Below are positions 31,281 to 48,516 of a stretch of 64,000 nucleotides of DNA, in pieces. Both the position numbers and the translations under genes were made by a program. Source of the DNA: an uncultured Nitrospiraceae bacterium (GTDB lineage Bacteria; Nitrospirota; Nitrospiria; Nitrospirales; Nitrospiraceae); the NCBI GenBank assembly GCA_963846575.1, contig CAWJWJ010000001.1, positions 960,001 through 1,024,000 on the forward strand, read 5' to 3'. Position 1 is the first letter of the stretch, and each line of letters starts with the position of its first letter. A model generated the notes under the pieces. The model saw nothing but the letters and a program-made list of their open reading frames with translations, searched no databases and was not told where the DNA came from.

Positions 31281-32538
31281 TCAGGGATAGAGCCCCCGTT
31301 GGAGATGGGCCTGGGCGACCTTGTCGATACCCGACATCAAGGCCGCCATGCGCATCGTCGTCTGTTTCTCGACCGAAAAGTGCAGGGTCCTGTGAAACGC
31401 ATTGGTGATGATATCCTGCAATCGGTCTTGAATATCTTTGGCCTTCCAGAAAAAGCGTTGGACGTCCTGTACCCACTCAAAATACGAGACGATGACGCCA
31501 CCGGAATTGGCCAGAATGTCGGGAATGATGAAGATGCCATTCTCGTTCAGAATCCGATCGGCCTCCAGGGTCGTGGGCCCGTTCGCCCCTTCGGCCAGGA
31601 TCCGGCAGCGCAACTTGGCCGCGTTGGCGGCAGTGATTTGTTCTGAGAGCGCCGCTGGTACCAGCACGGTGCAGTCCAATTGGAGAAGTTCCTCATTGGT
31701 AATGGGCTCGCCCAGGGTTATGTCGGGAAGCGGTTGCGTGTTGCTCCCGGTACCGTCGCAGGAGCTCCGGAATGTCGAGGCCTTTCGAATTGTAGATCCC
31801 TCCGGTTTCGTCGCTGACGGCAATCACCTGCGCCCCGGCCTGCTGCATGATCACGGCCGTGTGGGACCCCACGTTGCCGAATCCCTGAATGGCAACGGTC
31901 GTATCGGAGGGTTTGAGGTTCAGGTGCCGGAGGGCTTCCAGGGTGACATAGACCACGCCACGGCCTGTGGCCTCCTCGCGGCCCAGGCTCCCACCGATCG
32001 ATAGGGGTTTCCCCGTCACCACACCCTGCACGGCGTAACCGACTTGCTGGCTGTAGGTGTCCATGATCCAGGCCATCACCTGTTGATCCGTCCCCACGTC
32101 CGGTGCAGGGACATCCTTATCCGGTCCGATCAACGGGAAAATTTCCGAGGCATAACGTCGGGTCAGGCGCTGTAGTTCACCGCGACTTAATCGCTTGGGG
32201 TCCACTTTCACGCCGCCTTTGGCACCGCCGTAAGGAAGGTCTGCCAGGGCGCATTTCCAGGTCATCCACATGGCGAGGGCTGCCACTTCGCCGAGGTTCA
32301 CATCCGGATGATATCGAATGCCGCCTTTGGATGGACCACGGGCGGAGTCGTGTTGAACTCGATATCCGGTAAATACTTCCACGCGGCCATCGTCCATCTT
32401 GACCGGGACGCTGACGATCAACGACCGCTGCGGCAATTTCAGCCGTTCGCGCAGGTTGGGGTGCAGCTCCATCGTCTCCGCCGCTTCGTTGAATTGGGCC
32501 ACGGCGAGGCGAAAAGTATGGGTATCAAGTTCCGTCAT
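31281..32538 (-). CDS. gdhA: Glu/Leu/Phe/Val dehydrogenase, one apparent +1 frameshift near 31745
   Basis: GPSKGGIRYHP, GGAKGG, PAPDVGT, QGFGNVG in ORF 31693-32538; EGANGPT, PDILANSGGV..SYFEWVQ in ORF 31281-31823; span 1258 nt (3n+1). Confidence 0.9.
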
Positions 32539-39289: not shown

Positions 39290-39373
39290 CACCCCGGACA
39301 GGCGGCCGGCTCACGAGCGGGACGCCTGGCATTCTTGACAACGCCTGCGGAACAATGGTTCTTATACCGGCGC

Positions 39374-39450
39374 GCGCCCGTAGCTCAATTGGATAGAGCA
39401 TCGGACTTCGGATCCGAGGGTTGGGGGTTCAAGTCCCTCCGGGCGCACCA
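39374..39450 (+). tRNA. tRNA-Arg (anticodon TCG)
   Basis: Acceptor GCGCCCG/CGGGCGC-A-CCA; anticodon stem TCGGA/TCCGA with loop CT-TCG-GA; T-loop GTTCAAGT; 77 nt. Confidence 0.95.
39406..39450 (+). repeat. attL core (tRNA 3' half)
   Basis: CTTCGGATCCGAGGGTTGGGGGTTCAAGTCCCTCCGGGCGCACCA, identical to 48067-48111. Confidence 0.95.
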
Positions 39451-39496
39451 GATAATCAATAGGTTGCATCTTTTCTTCCGTTTTCTCCTCTTGGCT

Positions 39497-39519
39497 GGTC
39501 ACGGTTTTGGTCACGGTTC
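39497..39519 (+). repeat. Putative integrase arm-type sites (left)
   Basis: GGTCACGGTTTTGGTCACGGTTC, identical at 47902-47924. Confidence 0.7.
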
Positions 39520-40552
39520 CAGCCAGACTTCCTCGATTCACGGCGTCCCGAAGATGTCCTGGGGCGAGGTGGGCATATCGGAGCGTCGTCTCAATATCGC
39601 GGTGCCCGAGGATCTCCTTCACCGACACGAGATCGACCCCTGCCATGACACGGCGACTAGCTGCGGTATGTCGGAGTGAGTGCCAGCACGCCCCGGTAAT
39701 CCCCGCTCGACGCAGGCCAGGCTCAAACGCGCGCCGGAGGAAGGCCCGGCTGTCCATCGGGTGAGTCACGTCCTTTAATCCTGGAAAGACCCACGCCGAT
39801 CGAAGGAACGAGTCAAATGACCTCAGAATCGGTCTTGGCTCCTTCGCTCAAGGGCACATGCCGGGTTTTTCCTCCCTTCGGCATGGGGAGGGTCAGGACC
39901 TCGTTCTCCAAATCGACCTGGTTCCACCTGAGCGAAAACTGTTCTCCTCGTCTCAGACCCCGTCTCGACGGCGAAGGCCACCAATTTCCACTCCTCCGGG
40001 GTCATCACGCCCCTCAATCGGTCAAGTTCCTCACTGGTCAGGAATCGCGTCCGGTTCGCTTCAGGGAAGAACTTGAGGCTGGAGACTGGGTTCTTGGTGA
40101 GCTTGTCGTCTTTGACGGCTAACATCAGCACATGACGAAGGAAGGCAAAATGCCGGTTGATCGTGGCATCCGCCCACAGTCGTTGCGGTTCCTTCTTGCT
40201 CACCTTCATTTTGGCTCGCATTCTGGCCTGAATGCGCCGGAGATCGTCTACTGAAATCTGGGTGAGCACGCGATTCCCGATGAGCAGCGACCAGCGTCGC
40301 CCATAGAGCACTTCACCTGGCTTGTTGCGGTTGACAGATCCTTCGAGATAGCGATTGATCCACGCCCGAAGCGTAATGTCCTTTCGAGGGGCGAATTTCT
40401 CCGGGAAAAATGTCCCTTCCCGAATGTCGGCCTTCAATCGGCCATACAGGGCCTTGGCCTGTGATTTCGTATCACACCGAAACCAGCGCTCCCGACCGTG
40501 GACGTAGAGGCGCACCCACCAGCCTTCACGGCCTTTCCGCTGCGTGATGCCT

Positions 40553-41219
40553 CTATCCTTTCCCGCTTTTCTTGCCACGATGGCTCTCCTTTCGCTCCCC
40601 GGTCTTCTGGGCCTCGCGCCACTTTCTCGCCGCGACTCGGTTCTGGCAGCGCGGCTGGCAGTATACCTGGTCGCGCCGGATGGCTAAATAGATCGTCCGC
40701 ACTCGGGGCAGCGACGAATGTAGTCCCCGGACTGGACCAAGAGGTGCACAAAGCGGTACTCAAACTCCTTCGCCTTGCGCTTCGCGCTCACGAAGATTGT
40801 TCCGGTCTCGTCGGAGAAGCTGCCCGGCGATACTCACGACCAGGGTGAACTGCGGAAAGGTGAAGGCGGTGTATCGCTTCATGCCAATAGAGTTCCAACT
40901 GCTCCAGGACGGCGGCCTGAATCTCCTGGGCTTCTTTGCGACTGGGAATCGTCTGATAGTTCTTCGCGTTGGGCACCGCTTCCACGCTCCAGCCACTTTC
41001 GGGGGCCACCATCCCACCGTATCGGTCTCCCGTCTCGTCGACAAAGGCCGCGACCTCAAACGCTACCAGCGTCCATTCCGTGGGCGTCAGAGTTTCTAGA
41101 TCGACCTGTAAAAAGCGGAGCACCCACCCGACGGCGCCATCCGGCATCGTGCGGATGCGCTCGATGGCTTTCTGATACTCCTGTTGGAATTCCTGCTCGG
41201 CCTTCCCCTGTGCGCTCAT
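40553..41219 (-). pseudogene. CGNR zinc-finger protein, about 3 apparent frameshifts
   Basis: Stitched frames: MSAQGKAEQEF...LELYWHE / YTAFTFPQFTLVV / SPGSF...YIRRCPECG / IYLAIRRDQVYCQPRCQNRVAARKWR. Confidence 0.75.
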
Positions 41220-41424
41220 GCCTTCGGCTCCTTTCTCATGCCGAACCCTCCCCGTATTCCTGATCCCAACACCACCGAAAAAAGTGTCGTGCGGAAGGGC
41301 CGTCTCCACCTGAATTTGTTTGGCAAGTGTACCTCCGCACTTGATAATGGCTGTCAAGAGTCATCACGCCTAAAAAATAAGACGCGTGATCATTTTCCAA
41401 ACCATTCTTCCAAGGAGGTGCCCG

Positions 41425-41634
41425 ATGGTCCCAGTACAAAATTGATCACCATTCGAGAAGCGGCCGAACCGGTTAGGTCTGAAGGAAAGCACGATCAGGA
41501 AATACATCCTGAAACGGCAGATCGCCTATGTGAAGCCGTCGGTGCGAGCGGTGCGGATTCCCATCGAGGAATTGGAACGGATTCTCTCTGCCGGTCTGAG
41601 GCCGGCGATCCCTCAGGGGGAGGGTGCCCGATGA
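41425..41634 (+). pseudogene. Excisionase-like HTH protein, frameshifted
   Basis: AAGGAGGTG RBS; stitched KLITIREAAE-RLGLKESTIRKYILKRQIAYVKPSVRAVRIPIEELERIL; stop overlaps the next ATG (ATGA). Confidence 0.8.
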
Positions 41635-42346
41635 GCCGCTGGAAGGAGTTTCGGCGCGAACCAGTCGCCGGCGAATGGAGCAGGAAGCAGAAGCGGGGCT
41701 ATCACCGCGTCCGGTCGCTCCTGTGGTTCTGGGAGTCCCATCAGTTCCAGGTGCTCTGGGTCACGCTGTCTACGGCAGAAGGCGGGGATGCGGAGAAGCT
41801 CACCTATCACCACAAGCAACTGCGCCAACGGATCGAACGCCAGCTCGGCTTTGCAGGGTTGGAGTATTACCAGGTGCGGACAGATGAAGGGCATGGCGTG
41901 CTCCATATCTTCTGGGCCTGGCGGGTGCCGGATGGGGAACGCGCTCGCCGGTTCTGGATCTCGCAGGAATGGCTCTCGTCACAATGGGAAGCCCTCCACG
42001 GGGCTCCGGTGGTCTGGATCAAGGCCTACCAGCCCAGCCATCGCTCAAGGAACCGGTTGAGTCGCTACGTCATCAGCCAGTACGTCCAGGATCAATGCTG
42101 GCTACGTGAATATGTGTTGGTCGTGGAAACGGTCGCTTGGGGTTCCCCATCGGGAAGATGTGGGAAGAGATGCGGAACCAATGGCAGACCCAGAATGTCT
42201 ACCGACGCATACGGAAACAGATCGAAGTTCCTCGCATCGTCTTTCTCAAGACCTGGGAGGATCTGCTGTCTGGGCACCCCATCTGGTTCAGTAACACCAT
42301 TCTCCAACTCGTCCTGGGCAAAGGCCTCGTCTGGAGTCCGCTATGA
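41631..42346 (+). pseudogene. Rolling-circle Rep-like (HUH-superfamily) protein, two apparent +1 frameshifts
   Basis: Ordered motifs WVTLST (I), EGHGVLHIFW (II-like), W....G, LSRYVISQYV (III-like); continues GYVNMCWSWKRSLG / FPIGKMWEE...WSPL. Confidence 0.65.
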
Positions 42347-43725: not shown

Positions 43726-45336
43726 ATGGAGGTAACAGTGAAAGCCATCTATAACAAGAGATCTTATGTATCGGCAGTAGGGCTAACGTTGGGATGGCCA
43801 TTCCTTTTGGCCTCAACAGCCGTGGCGAGCGGGTATGAAGAATGTAACCAAATACTCACCCAGGACATCTTTAACAAGGTTCTAAAAAGTGATGTAAGCA
43901 CCGCGTCAGCGTCGGAGGCATACCAGTCGGCATATTTCAAGTCGAACGCCACAGCGGCATACAATGAATATAAGACGGCACATAAAGAAGCGCAGAAAAA
44001 AGGGACAAAGCTTGAGGTTGGAGGTAACTACGGTCCGATTGGTGCGAAGATGGGCCTAGAGTTGACCTCCGAGAAACTCGTTGAAAAAGAAGAGTTCGAG
44101 AAGGCATTTAACAGTGTGCAAAGTCAGGAGTCGGGATCGCAATCCTCTAGTTCCTCCTCAGCTCAATCCCTTGTAAATACATATGCTACATATGTCCGAG
44201 ACCCTGTAACCGTGTCTGCATGGAAAGATTGCGTCTCTCGGACGAAGGACACTAACCTCTACGCGTATGCAAGCCGTGATGGGAAGCGTACATATGTAAA
44301 CGTTATGTGGGTTCCGGGCGCCTTGGCTGGCATGCTACCTTCCATTCCAATAAGCTTCGTAACGCACGACTCGGACATTGTAATTGAAGCGAAATCAGTA
44401 GAACAAATCGCAATAGGGAGCGGTCGGAATTTTGTGGTGACTTGTAGCAAATCTTGCGACAAGGGCTTTCTGGTTACTGTCAACGGGAGCCTGAAAAATT
44501 CCACCGGCGCTCTCGGAGGCTCTTTCACTGCCACTGTGCAGGTACCTCCTAAGCGGTTACCTGTTCCGAAGGCTCCGGGAGTAGTAGCGTCCGTAGATCA
44601 CACATACATTTATGGGATCAATAACAACGGTGAAATGTTCTGGTATGAAAACGATCGACAGACTGATGATAGCCTTGAATGGGCCAGCGATGAGGGAAAG
44701 CTGGTCGGAACAGGGTGGAACTTTGATCAGGTCTTTTCCGGCGGCAATGCGGTTATTTATGGGGTCAAGGATAACGGCGATTTGCTGTGGTATCGCCATG
44801 ACGGGCGAAACGACGGAACGATGAAATGGTCTCCCCAATCTCGATCGAAGGTAGGCGATGGATGGCATTTCAAGCAAATATTTTCGATCGGCAATGGTGT
44901 CATCTACGCTATTAAGGAAAATGGCGACGTGTACTGGTATCGCCATGAAGGGCGAAATGACGGGAGTCTAAGATGGGCCAAAAATTCTGGGCAGCGAGTG
45001 GCCAGTGGGTGGGATTTTAAGCAAATTATTGCTGGCGACAACGGTGTGATCTATGGCGTCACTGACAACGGCGACGTACTTTGGTATCGCCACGAAGGAT
45101 GGAATGATGGTGGCTCGAGTTGGGCAAAAAAGTCCGGAACCAAGGTAAATTCTGGATGGAACTTCGAGAAAGTCTTTTCAATCGGCGGCGGTGTCATCTA
45201 TGGCGTCAAAGATAACGGCGACTTATTTTCATATCAGCATGAAGGACGGAATGATGGTAGCCCGAAATGGGCACCCAGCGATGGACAAAAAATGGGTGAC
45301 CGCTGGAACTTTAGGCAAGTCTTTGCGGGAAAATAG
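43726..45336 (+). CDS. Secreted protein: unknown N-terminal domain plus five tachylectin-2-like repeats
   Basis: Signal peptide ending AVA; five ~49-aa repeats IY(G/A)...NGD..WY.H.G..DG...W.....V..GW.F..(V/I)F. Confidence 0.88.
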   Translation: MEVTVKAIYNKRSYVSAVGLTLGWPFLLASTAVASGYEECNQILTQDIFNKVLKSDVSTASASEAYQSAYFKSNATAAYNEYKTAHKEAQKKGTKLEVGGNYGPIGAKMGLELTSEKLVEKEEFEKAFNSVQSQESGSQSSSSSSAQSLVNTYATYVRDPVTVSAWKDCVSRTKDTNLYAYASRDGKRTYVNVMWVPGALAGMLPSIPISFVTHDSDIVIEAKSVEQIAIGSGRNFVVTCSKSCDKGFLVTVNGSLKNSTGALGGSFTATVQVPPKRLPVPKAPGVVASVDHTYIYGINNNGEMFWYENDRQTDDSLEWASDEGKLVGTGWNFDQVFSGGNAVIYGVKDNGDLLWYRHDGRNDGTMKWSPQSRSKVGDGWHFKQIFSIGNGVIYAIKENGDVYWYRHEGRNDGSLRWAKNSGQRVASGWDFKQIIAGDNGVIYGVTDNGDVLWYRHEGWNDGGSSWAKKSGTKVNSGWNFEKVFSIGGGVIYGVKDNGDLFSYQHEGRNDGSPKWAPSDGQKMGDRWNFRQVFAGK

Positions 45337-45590
45337 GACCTGATTCAGGCACATCCACAGAGTCCAGTGATGGTCTTTGAGAGGATTATGTGACGCTAAC
45401 CATGAAACTTCACTGAATTGGACACGACCACCTCGGGAATTGATGACTGGGACGCCATCCAAAATCACAGGGTATCTCAGAGTTCAGACGATCACGACCA
45501 CAGACATGACAAAGTAAACTCACCGCTGGACTCAGATCGAGTCCGTCCGATCTTGTTTACCTTTCACAAGCCGAGTTGCAGGAGATACCA

Positions 45591-46433
45591 ATGTTTGTAC
45601 GATTCTATTTGATGATGGGAATCTCTTTGGTGTTTTTCTGTCAGGCGACTCCGTTACTTGCTGAAAATGTCCTCGAGTGGAAGGGTTTTAAAGGGGACAA
45701 TAAGCTAAAAGATGCAGCCAACCTCGATTCCGCTCACATAAAGCAGGGAGATCGGGGACCGCATGTCAGCAAGATACAACACTCTATAAAATTCCTGGAC
45801 TCCGCTTTCATCAGCCAAGAAGAAATGGACACACAAACATATGGTCCATCAACGGCTAAAGCTGTGCTGGGCTACAAAACTTCCCGAAAGATTATTAACC
45901 AGAAATACCAGTCAAAACCTGACAGCATTGTAGGGAAAATGACTATGGTGGCCTTAGATCGCGAGATGAGCCAAAGAGCCATGGAACGCTTTGAAGATCT
46001 CAAATTCCCTGCAGCAATGGAACCTTTCCCAAGTAACGAGGCGAAAGCTCCAGACGGCTTTTCTATCCCAATTCCCAAAACCATTACACGTTCTGGCAAT
46101 ATTATCTCTCTCCGGGGAGCAAGAGTAACAGTGACAATGGGGCCAGAACGCGCCAGTTCATGTAAATATCGCATGGTGATTGATAATGTTCCTCCGGAGA
46201 CTCACAACGACGCGCAACTAGCAAGTGAAGCAGCAGACCATCTGGTTGAAGAAGCCGCGTGGGCGGTAATACTTGATAAAGCAGCAGCCGCTATCACGTT
46301 TGGTTCCACAAAAGTAGGCATCGGTGTATCAGCAGCAGCAGCTTTAATTGTACCATCTCCAATTCTCCGAGAAATTGTGTGGCATGCTGATGTCGATGGG
46401 AGGAAGGTTTGCTACCTATTGGTAACCCAGTAA
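45591..46433 (+). CDS. Exported protein with PG-binding-like domain and unknown C-terminal domain
   Basis: AGGAG RBS; signal peptide; IKQGDRGPHVSKIQ..YGPSTAKAV..YK...DSIVGKMTMVALD. Confidence 0.8.
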   Translation: MFVRFYLMMGISLVFFCQATPLLAENVLEWKGFKGDNKLKDAANLDSAHIKQGDRGPHVSKIQHSIKFLDSAFISQEEMDTQTYGPSTAKAVLGYKTSRKIINQKYQSKPDSIVGKMTMVALDREMSQRAMERFEDLKFPAAMEPFPSNEAKAPDGFSIPIPKTITRSGNIISLRGARVTVTMGPERASSCKYRMVIDNVPPETHNDAQLASEAADHLVEEAAWAVILDKAAAAITFGSTKVGIGVSAAAALIVPSPILREIVWHADVDGRKVCYLLVTQ

Positions 46434-46760
46434 TCTTACCTCACCGTAGTTTTCAGTTGAAGCCCGCGATCAGCCTGATAGCTACAGATGACACTAGCTT
46501 GAGAAGCCGTTTTAAGGCGAGGGTAAGAGGTTCAATAACTTCGGGCCTATCGAACAGCTCTAAAGGCGTTGATAGGAAAACTGTAATGTTCGACATGAGA
46601 ACAGCTCGGGGAGCCATTGCTTTCATCGAACCATTTGAGGCGGAGTCATTTCAAATCAAGCGTTGCTATTTCTGCTCGCGATGACGCTTAAGGCTTAGGT
46701 TGAACAAGAGGCCGGCCTGTAGGTATCAGCGACTAGCAGCATTTGCGCCATCAAGCTATA

Positions 46761-47495
46761 CTATTGGATAAATGGGGTCGAACCCGATTCGTGGAATTGC
46801 TCTATCAATTGCCCTGCGCACTTGTTCCCAGCAATCGCGAGTTGCTGCACCATAAATATCATGCCCCATTCGGCTTGTTCTCGCCATTCGGACCGTACGT
46901 CCAGTGAACCAACAGAGCATTGACCCTGCCAAACCACCGTGGAGTCCTTGAGTCGAATGAGACGGGCACGTGCCTGATAGTAGAGGTTGAACTTCTTGCC
47001 CAAGACGTTAAACATGCCAGCGTCGGATATCCACAAGCTTGACACCTCAATGTTGAAGGGGTCGCGCTCGTGTAAAAATGCTTTACGTGATGTAAAGTCC
47101 AACACATAGCCATCACCGAAGGTTTCCCCTAACTCTGTTATTCCCTCTCGAATGCAACAAGATCGCGTTAATGACCACCGGTGTCGCCACACCACAGGTA
47201 TGGGCACGGATCGTATATTGGTAAGACCGGCTTGAGCCATCAATTGGGAAGACACCTGCTCTTTTATGATGTCGATAGGGTCTGATAAAAGCAGTCCGTG
47301 CGTGGAAGCTAGACCTGGTGCATAGGACACAAAAATACCGTCGCCCTGGCGCCAATGGACTGCTTGAATCAGTGGGATGTGCTGGAGCTCAGCCCTCTGC
47401 TGGTCCGATAGATTAAGCCGCCCAGTTCCCCCTATACATCCAAGCGTGCTCACTATGAAAAGGACGACAATCAGTCGCAATGCGATTCTAAACAT
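46761..47495 (-). CDS. Hypothetical lipoprotein
   Basis: MFRIALRLIVVLFIVSTLGC lipobox. Confidence 0.72.
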   Translation of the reverse strand: MFRIALRLIVVLFIVSTLGCIGGTGRLNLSDQQRAELQHIPLIQAVHWRQGDGIFVSYAPGLASTHGLLLSDPIDIIKEQVSSQLMAQAGLTNIRSVPIPVVWRHRWSLTRSCCIREGITELGETFGDGYVLDFTSRKAFLHERDPFNIEVSSLWISDAGMFNVLGKKFNLYYQARARLIRLKDSTVVWQGQCSVGSLDVRSEWREQAEWGMIFMVQQLAIAGNKCAGQLIEQFHESGSTPFIQ

Positions 47496-47901
47496 CAGAT
47501 TTCCATGTACGAGGGTGTGAAGCATCTGGTGGAGATCGGAAAACGGGGCAGTCTTGAGCTCGAGTCACAGTTGTGGAACGGCCCGCTAGCAGATGTTTCA
47601 CAGCTCGGGTAGTCGCACGCTATCCCTCAACATCCTAGTTAAATGGATGAATAATGCTAGGGAAAGTTGTAAATGGTCGTGCGGCGCCATCTGGGAGATT
47701 TTCCCGAGCACGATCGGCGCGTCCGGTTTAGTCTAGGGATTGAGCCGTTTCGATGATCAGGTAATTCTTTCGGGAGGAGGTCGCTCTATCGCTAACAGCA
47801 TAGAAGATGGCCGTCGCGATTGGGTCGAAAGCCGGAAAGCTCTTGATCCGCTCTATGGGCAATCCGGTTCACACGGAAGGAGCATATTGGACGGCATTCT
47901 C

Positions 47902-47940
47902 GGTCACGGTTTTGGTCACGGTTCGGTCCCGGTTTTGGCC
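47902..47940 (+). repeat. Putative integrase arm-type sites (right)
   Basis: GGTCACGGTTTT GGTCACGGTTC GGTCCCGGTTTT GGCC. Confidence 0.7.
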
Positions 47941-48066
47941 CCGATTGCTAATCTACCCTCATCGTCACTGGTCGCACCGTTGAATGCTCTAATCGATTGA
48001 TTTGCAAAACTAAAATCACGTTCTGTCACCACCAATCGCTGTCAGTCTCTATGTCACTTTGTGAGC

Positions 48067-48111
48067 CTTCGGATCCGAGGGTTGGGGGTTCAAGTCCCTC
48101 CGGGCGCACCA
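48067..48111 (+). repeat. attR core (copy of tRNA-Arg 3' half)
   Basis: 45/45 identical to 39406-39450. Confidence 0.95.
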
Positions 48112-48231
48112 TATAATCAATCGGTTGCATCTCCCCATCTCGTTTTCCCTCTTCACCGGTCACGGTTTCAGCGGGACTGCTTCGACTCACTTCGTCCCGA
48201 AACTGCCTCGTGGAAGGCGGGCGTATCGAGC
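48112..48231 (-). pseudogene. Relic 3' end of a second, homologous integrase
   Basis: Aligns by eye with 39451-39585; encodes RYARL../RQFRDEVSRSSPAETVT...MQPIDYMVRPEG versus RYAHLAPGHLRDAVNRGSLAGTVT...MQPIDYLVRPEG. Confidence 0.75.
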
Positions 48232-48516
48232 GGAATCGGGCGTCCTGCTGCGGGTGGGCCTGGTGACGGTGGCTGAACGATTGACCGGCCTGGCCGATCA
48301 ACTTGCGCTCTCAAATTCAAGACGCCAGCCGGAATGGGGAGGATCGGAAGGGTGCAGCTTGTGCAGCCGATCCTGCCTCTTTTGTGCTCTGCCGGACCGC
48401 GTCAGGATCGACGCAACACACCTTCCAATCTGTAGCATCCGTGAGCAGGCGTCGGTAGACAACGCTCCGCGTGGTTACGTAGAGTCGCCCGGATTCATTT
48501 TTCTCAGGGTTGACTC

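Follow-up and report, generated by a model that had tools for sequence, protein, structure and literature searches.

An integrase frame that runs through its tRNA attachment site in a family of Nitrospira islands, and a possible clamp motif encoded on excision

The island and its attachment sites

The window, a 64-kb stretch (64,000 nucleotides) of DNA from an uncultured Nitrospiraceae bacterium, carries an 8661-bp (8.66-kb) element with low-GC cargo, inserted in tRNA-Arg(TCG) and bounded by 45-bp repeats. The tRNA gene at 39374-39450 is the sole Arg(TCG) gene in the genome listing, and the close homologues are labelled Nitrospira. The features of the element are as follows.

39362-40578, minus: tyrosine integrase gene (int), 404 aa in intact relatives; catalytic Tyr codon 39577-39575; two single-base insertions near 39956 and 39830
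39374-39450, plus: host tRNA-Arg(TCG), restored at attL (ARAGORN); the 5' part is host DNA, the loop and 3' half lie inside the att repeat
39406-39450, plus: attL identity block, 45 bp, exact repeat of 48067-48111
39454-39466, plus: IHF-consensus site within the int coding sequence (read as QPIDY), exact consensus match
39497-39519, plus: putative arm-type direct repeats, P' side, within the int coding sequence (read as TVTKTVT), identical to 47902-47924
40553-41309, minus: conserved gene of ~251 aa upstream of and overlapping int, frameshifted here; zinc-finger matches weak, below cut-off; intact copy in the relative L103, from which the window end is taken
41425-41634, plus: excisionase-like HTH gene; compensating one-base indels break the window copy
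41631-42346, plus: Rep-like gene, likely of rolling-circle type, with two one-base insertions here; no Pfam match; look-alike cluster REP_ORF2-G2P (score 0.97), a lead
43726-47525, no strand: low-GC cargo region with three ORFs
43726-45336, plus: tachylectin-domain cargo protein, by domain match
45576-46433, plus: cargo ORF, no Pfam match
46761-47525, minus: cargo ORF, no Pfam match
47902-47947, plus: arm-type direct repeats, P side, by repeat comparison
47990-48002, minus: IHF-consensus site, P arm, exact consensus match
48067-48111, plus: attR identity block, displaced tRNA 3' half, exact repeat
48112-48232, minus: scar of an older same-family element (int 3' end, IHF site 48115, one arm repeat 48158), 71% to the int 3' end

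The att repeat begins at base 1 of the anticodon loop and takes in the last 45 bases of the tRNA. Its left edge is identical in related elements, and the crossover can be placed within the 7-base anticodon loop, 39406-39412. With an intact tRNA, a displaced 3' fragment starting from the anticodon loop and an integrase inside, the element is an anticodon-centred tRNA island. It resembles the lambda-type islands of that Islander class in having a full tRNA at one end and a 3' fragment at the other, an anticodon-loop crossover, arm and IHF-like sites, and a separate Xis.

Parts of the attachment arms lie within the integrase gene. One copy of a 23-bp arm-type repeat is found inside int (39497-39519) and another on the far arm (47902-47924). 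Scored against what we take to be the IHF consensus, the 64-kb window holds three exact matches (39454, 47990 and 48115), all adjoining att. Because arm repeats and IHF matches occupy that coding DNA, the peptides TVTKTVT and QPIDY are, as read from the sequence, translated DNA sites. Synonymous change in the DNA encoding them is zero.

The DNA beyond attR, which the earlier note described as a relic integrase keeping the same open frame into att, proved to be a scar, about 120 bp long, in which no catalytic Tyr lies in frame. Such a scar occurs in one of the 51 Arg loci with attR, namely the window; the genome yielded no third copy of att that could belong to the older element. No virion family was found among the five core genes scanned, and the best 15 of 1666 matches listed include neither a phage record above 60% identity nor a Myxococcus phage. 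A scan for promoters and terminators gave matches at chance level. A sigma-70-like site (41320-41348, plus, 10/12) lies ahead of the xis-rep genes, such sites being at chance level in the region. The tachylectin cargo protein holds four 147-bp repeats (44712-45273).

The integrase itself is recognised by PF00589 above cut-off, both in the window's C-terminal piece and in the intact L103, and its residues R209, K234, H299, R302, H325 and Y334 are invariant in 53 homologues. As assembled, its catalytic part is severed from its N-terminal part by the frameshifts at ~39956 and ~39830, both insertions relative to all five relatives compared. The neighbouring core genes show about seven further one-base indels against the same five relatives. 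Host genes are split in 0 of 122 cases in one set and 2 of 25 in another; one of these two, near 31737, has a one-base insertion against four relatives, the same type of defect as in the element. The two int insertions are probably assembly errors, although they may reflect real recent damage. Long decay was considered and is unlikely: private changes in the window int amount to seven synonymous and three conservative ones with no nonsense, and int is intact over 333 codons in 27 of 27 clade members.

An integrase frame open across the anticodon loop

On the minus strand, the frame of the catalytic Tyr stays open across the att core and the whole tRNA antisense to a TAA at 39364-39362, confirming the earlier note. 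In the computed circle the same frame ends at a TGA, 48028-48026, and both tail sequences that the note had given match the computed ends. Three features describe the two states and what lies beyond.

39362-39406, minus: integrated-state tail, 14 aa, antisense of the host tRNA 5' half plus leader
48026-48066, minus: excised-state tail, 13 aa, acidic, with its stop in the computed circle
48002-48025, minus: decayed remnant (QNVILVLQ, behind the stop) of a clamp-like motif that relatives translate, by comparison with them

The proposed swap of the C-terminal tail holds in the computed circle, with one correction to its extent. The tRNA 3' half is translated in both states, and only the residues after the loop, 14 integrated versus 13 excised, depend on the state. 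The crossover lies 57 codons beyond the catalytic Tyr, with all catalytic residues upstream of it.

Integrase genes that cross their attachment site have precedents, of which the closest, that of Myxococcus phage Mx8, was missing from the earlier account, as were the two int frameshifts and the clamp-like motif of close relatives. The available text on Islander describes the Mx8 and SSV integrases as extending across attP (PMC4383910). In Mx8, according to passages of a review, int acquires a new 3' end on integration, and the enzyme remains active with altered specificity (PMC6070905). Mx8, and likewise Mx9, can be likened to the Nitrospira elements by geometry, as far as those passages go: a bacterial int gene crosses attP, with the crossover downstream of the catalytic residues. 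The Nitrospira swap differs in being small (13-21 aa excised versus 1-62 aa integrated), in belonging to a non-phage island of 5-16 kb that has Xis-like and Rep-like genes, and in the clamp-like motif that one clade has on its excised tail. In the 'suicidal' archaeal tyrosine integrases of SSV type, as portrayed in part of PMC7253208, att lies within int and is translated with it, the targets are tRNAs, and integration splits the gene into inactive halves. The translated att and the tRNA target are shared with these enzymes; the Nitrospira integrase, unlike them, keeps all catalytic residues on one side and is not split in the suicidal manner.

Read-through was followed across 200 loci drawn from three sources, genomes, metagenomes and viral contigs. 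The catalytic-site pattern allowed 158 of them to be scored; most of the 42 in which it was unmatched are integrases of around 40% identity. When distinct loci whose gene is followed by a tRNA are counted, 95 of 97 Arg loci, 9 of 9 Cys loci and 2 of 18 Gln loci have the integrase frame open across the loop; these counts overstate independence since the loci are related. The conserved lack of a stop before att for which an alignment of homologues had been suggested is thus found at the Arg and Cys loci. By anticodon, the open Arg loci number 40/40 for TCG (the window included), 22/23 for ACG, 32/33 for TCT and 1/1 for CCG. The other two frames are open in 0 of 97 Arg loci, a weak control in that arm repeats and tRNA carry stops in both. 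The open Arg loci have 12 different spacings from Tyr to tRNA and one frame throughout, the two closed loci being off by one base. The spacings of the Gln loci, in contrast, spread over all three frames. In 57 distinct linkers no stop was observed, versus 7.9-10.9 expected. Because 95 of 97 are open in the integrase frame and none in the others, and because linker stops are absent where about 8-11 would be expected, read-through is, on these comparisons, a family trait under selection, beyond chance.

This trait is not general among integrases. None of five distant integrases is open across the loop, and the distant representatives stop at a median of 39.5 residues after Tyr (102 scored of 150); in this respect the family departs from the lambda-type islands, most distant homologues stopping earlier. 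The host genome holds four further tRNA-linked integrases (L002-L005, G000:C2) of ~30% identity, and the two of these that were scored, L003 and L004, stop 39 codons after Tyr, just short of the tRNA. In a midpoint-rooted tree of 136 integrases, from which the frameshifted window copy was left out, the Gln group is nested among open clades, which suggests that the Gln-targeting group lost read-through.

A simpler reading is that the arm, IHF and Xis sites fix spacing and sequence, and that the tails are an incidental and functionless by-product of this DNA architecture. The translated sites TVTKTVT and QPIDY, free of synonymous change, fit such a constraint, as do those spacing changes that are losses of 12-bp repeats and therefore in frame by construction, and the short tails appear close to neutral. 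Other spacing changes, however, are insertions of 3-90 bases. A constraint on DNA leaves the stop-free, variable linker unexplained, and it does not account for members whose arm repeats fall in a different reading frame and which are nonetheless back in the common frame by the tRNA. The by-product reading also meets a synonymous bias in the motif described below and the decay of that motif in Gln arms, and we regard it as quite improbable.

Two groups of loci continue past the loop in ways of their own. In the tRNA-Cys members (L155-L168) the loop is crossed in a different frame relative to the tRNA, and they would gain mostly acidic tails of 21-24 aa. In L095, L096 and L115 the integrase frame continues beyond the loop into DNA that is not tRNA and is similar in all three, where the end of a different type of element seems to have been inserted in tandem.

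Tails of the excised and integrated states

Circles were computed for the 73 rows with both ends. They yield 53 distinct excised tails of 9-24 aa with a mean net charge of -3, 50 of the 53 being negative; the same P-arm DNA in other frames is not acidic. The integrated tails range from 1 to 62 aa, with charges of 0 to +5 and a length set by the host DNA. They are unconserved and end mostly in G, V, H or P, and 17 of 53 are just one residue long. The earlier note had contrasted an acidic excised tail with a basic or hydrophobic integrated one: the first holds family-wide, while the second fails as a tag, varying as it does from member to member. No conserved ssrA-like tag or -AA-type end was found in either state among the computed tails. 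Because the integrated tail runs from 1 to 62 aa and is so often a single residue, the change of state seems to consist in losing the excised tail on integration rather than gaining a tag. Outside the window's clade the excised tails are under little sequence constraint (pN/pS 0.65-0.83).

One contig, L061, is in attP form, with int, core, acidic tail and a P arm whose private repeat variant is shared with its own P' arm. Two proteins, P0196 and P0225, end in acidic tails of excised type, which may come from tandem junctions. Among the proteins retrieved there is no record of a full int joined to the motif tail, and the core-plus-tail pattern had 0 matches in viral contigs. Contigs of sequencing runs, in which the best run contained 0.13 of the sequence words and relatives rather than this strain were represented, showed no attL-to-attR joint, a result that says little because contigs break at the 45-bp repeat.

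The charge difference between the states invites a reading in terms of protein stability. Acidic C-termini can stabilise proteins, and the acidic excised tail could shield the integrase from C-terminal proteases, the mostly non-polar integrated end speeding its decay and so limiting excision, with the clamp-like motif secondary. This degron switch, which comes near to the idea in the earlier note, would account for the open frame in clades without the motif. A precedent exists in mycobacteriophage repressors of BPs type, where, in the available text of PMC3694055, recombination at attP removes a C-terminal degradation tag. The likeness, within that text, is that recombination at attP swaps a C-terminal signal of a protein; the difference is that there the protein is a repressor and the signal a degradation tag, whereas here it is an integrase and the best-supported signal is the clamp-like motif. 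The integrated tails, of 1 to 62 aa, have no tag in common, in the motif clade the last residues after excision are a non-polar FSL, and the Gln-targeting members manage without a swap, all of which leave a degron switch doubtful.

The tail might instead control directionality directly, as is reported of Mx8, by altering site preference or contacts with Xis, IHF or other subunits, with neither clamp nor protease involved. In the passages of the review cited above, the Mx8 swap changed both specificity and efficiency (PMC6070905), and an acidic tail could plausibly act on DNA binding. The element has a separate excisionase-like gene, however, and the swapped part lies ~57 residues past the catalytic Tyr, behind a variable linker, which makes direct control unlikely. 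The four readings, including clamp docking, can overlap, and the degron and directionality readings must cover the motif-less clades and the window copy as well.

A clamp-like motif and a possible state switch

The nearest integrases to that of the window form a 26-row Arg-TCG clade (SH-aLRT 100), L095 and L006 being the closest. The excised tail of this clade is 21 aa long and ends in Q[MLI]D[MLI]FSL followed by the stop. With P-arms located through an anchor outside the motif, motif and stop are intact in 14 of 16 Arg-core P-arms versus 0 of 6 homologous Gln-core P-arms, which carry stops and have lost the terminator. The two exceptions among the 16 are the window and L007, in which a stop falls 8 codons earlier and the DNA behind it has decayed. 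By this comparison the earlier stop has deprived the lineage of the window and L007 of the motif, leaving the acidic tail only.

The Gln-TTG P-arm consensus matches that of the Arg-TCG clade at 59 of 66 bases, although the motif DNA is never translated there. The motif has a pN/pS of 0.07 in 13 motif-bearing arms, which were picked by motif, and of 0.23 with the two exceptions added; the Gln arms give 0.67, and the DNA behind the stop gives about 1. Its conservation is of coding type and confined to arms in which it is translated. A less clean control is offered by the core-less, presumably untranslated P-arm copies in cargo, of which 6 out of 10 retain the motif, as a by-product of DNA constraint would allow; their pN/pS of 0.52, versus 0.60 behind the motif, marks no constraint specific to it. 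The motif adjoins an IHF-type site. It is limited to one clade. A pattern for its DNA matched 15 of the 38 genomes in the genus and 1 of the other 332 genomes in the family.

Arms of this type also occur in unexpected places. Six loci (L009, L010, L018, L029, L103 and L105) have a second, core-less P arm, tail motif included, ~827 bp inside attR in the cargo; the copy in L103 lies just upstream of a relB-yafQ toxin-antitoxin pair. These copies are probably an old secondary-site junction captured as cargo. In seven others (L089, L091, L121, L123, L124, L126 and L128) the Gln-TTG P arms resemble those of the Arg-TCG clade. Because the consensus arms agree so closely while the integrases are not sisters, P-arm exchange between elements is suggested.

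The excised tail carries, near its C-terminus, a pentapeptide like the beta-clamp consensus Q-L-x-L-F; this holds for the 14 intact Arg-core P-arms, not for the window copy. In the available portions of PMC4549789 and PMC3971601, the consensus is often C-terminal, and stronger C-terminal QLxLF motifs give higher transposition. The transposition proteins of IS1634, IS66 and Tn7 (TnsE), among others described there, share the short C-terminal Q-L-x-L-F-like motif. Theirs is constitutive, in contrast to that of the Nitrospira integrase, which would gain the motif by excision only. The word integrase is absent from the main texts of both papers. A literature search, resting on listings and on the papers cited here, found neither a clamp motif on any integrase nor an account of this element family; a bioinformatic report of integrase tails read from tRNA antisense may have been missed.

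In the host the strict pattern Q[LMI][SD][LMI]F within the last 12 residues occurs in 1 of 3264 ORFs, a uracil-DNA glycosylase; two further matches of the pattern at any position are in unrelated proteins. The glycosylase (L275, G000:C2:766787-767466) ends in QMDLFGS, likely itself a beta-clamp motif. A predicted complex of a relative's DnaN with the tail scored 0.52 versus 0.01 for the best control, with a partner pLDDT of at least 41 and contact agreement of at least 47%, and with no interface given. Of the solved pairs, 116 of 157 attain the mark applied to such scores, as do 2 of 215 mismatched pairs; at or below 0.60 it is attained by only 18 solved pairs along with both mismatches. The predicted fold lends a little support to clamp binding, and its score may reflect likeness to solved clamp-peptide complexes.

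These observations lead to a model in which the free circle would make an integrase with a short acidic tail, ending in the predicted clamp motif in most of the window's clade. This form would dock on host DnaN and be drawn to replicating DNA, be it the chromosome as its fork passes tRNA-Arg or the circle during its own replication, where docking would favour integration. Integration would swap the motif tail for residues read off the host tRNA; the integrated enzyme would then be without its tether, so that recombination itself would act as the state switch. That the excised-form tail in most of the clade is a clamp-docking signal switched by recombination has, in our judgement, an even chance of being right. 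The fuller claim falls a shade short of even: that the integrase carries a beta-clamp motif only when encoded by the excised circle, that integration is thereby directed to replicating DNA, and that the tether is removed when the element inserts. The model takes its start from the geometry, a frame that stays open family-wide, the computed tails of both states and the coding-type conservation of the motif; docking on DnaN and the draw to replicating DNA are what we infer. The tail swap alone is Mx8-like and known, and the excision-gated clamp motif is the new part. If true, this would be the first clamp-binding tyrosine integrase known to us, and a protein-interaction motif gated by recombination.

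An integrase gene that crosses attP is commonly regarded as a rare oddity. In these elements such genes form a whole family under selection and come with a natural control, the early-stopping Gln members with their decaying tail DNA. Database integrase entries are mostly of the integrated form, so clones made from genomes test the enzyme without the tail that the circle encodes. If the clamp motif works, it would tie site-specific integration to replication and provide these islands with a directionality device that needs no extra gene.
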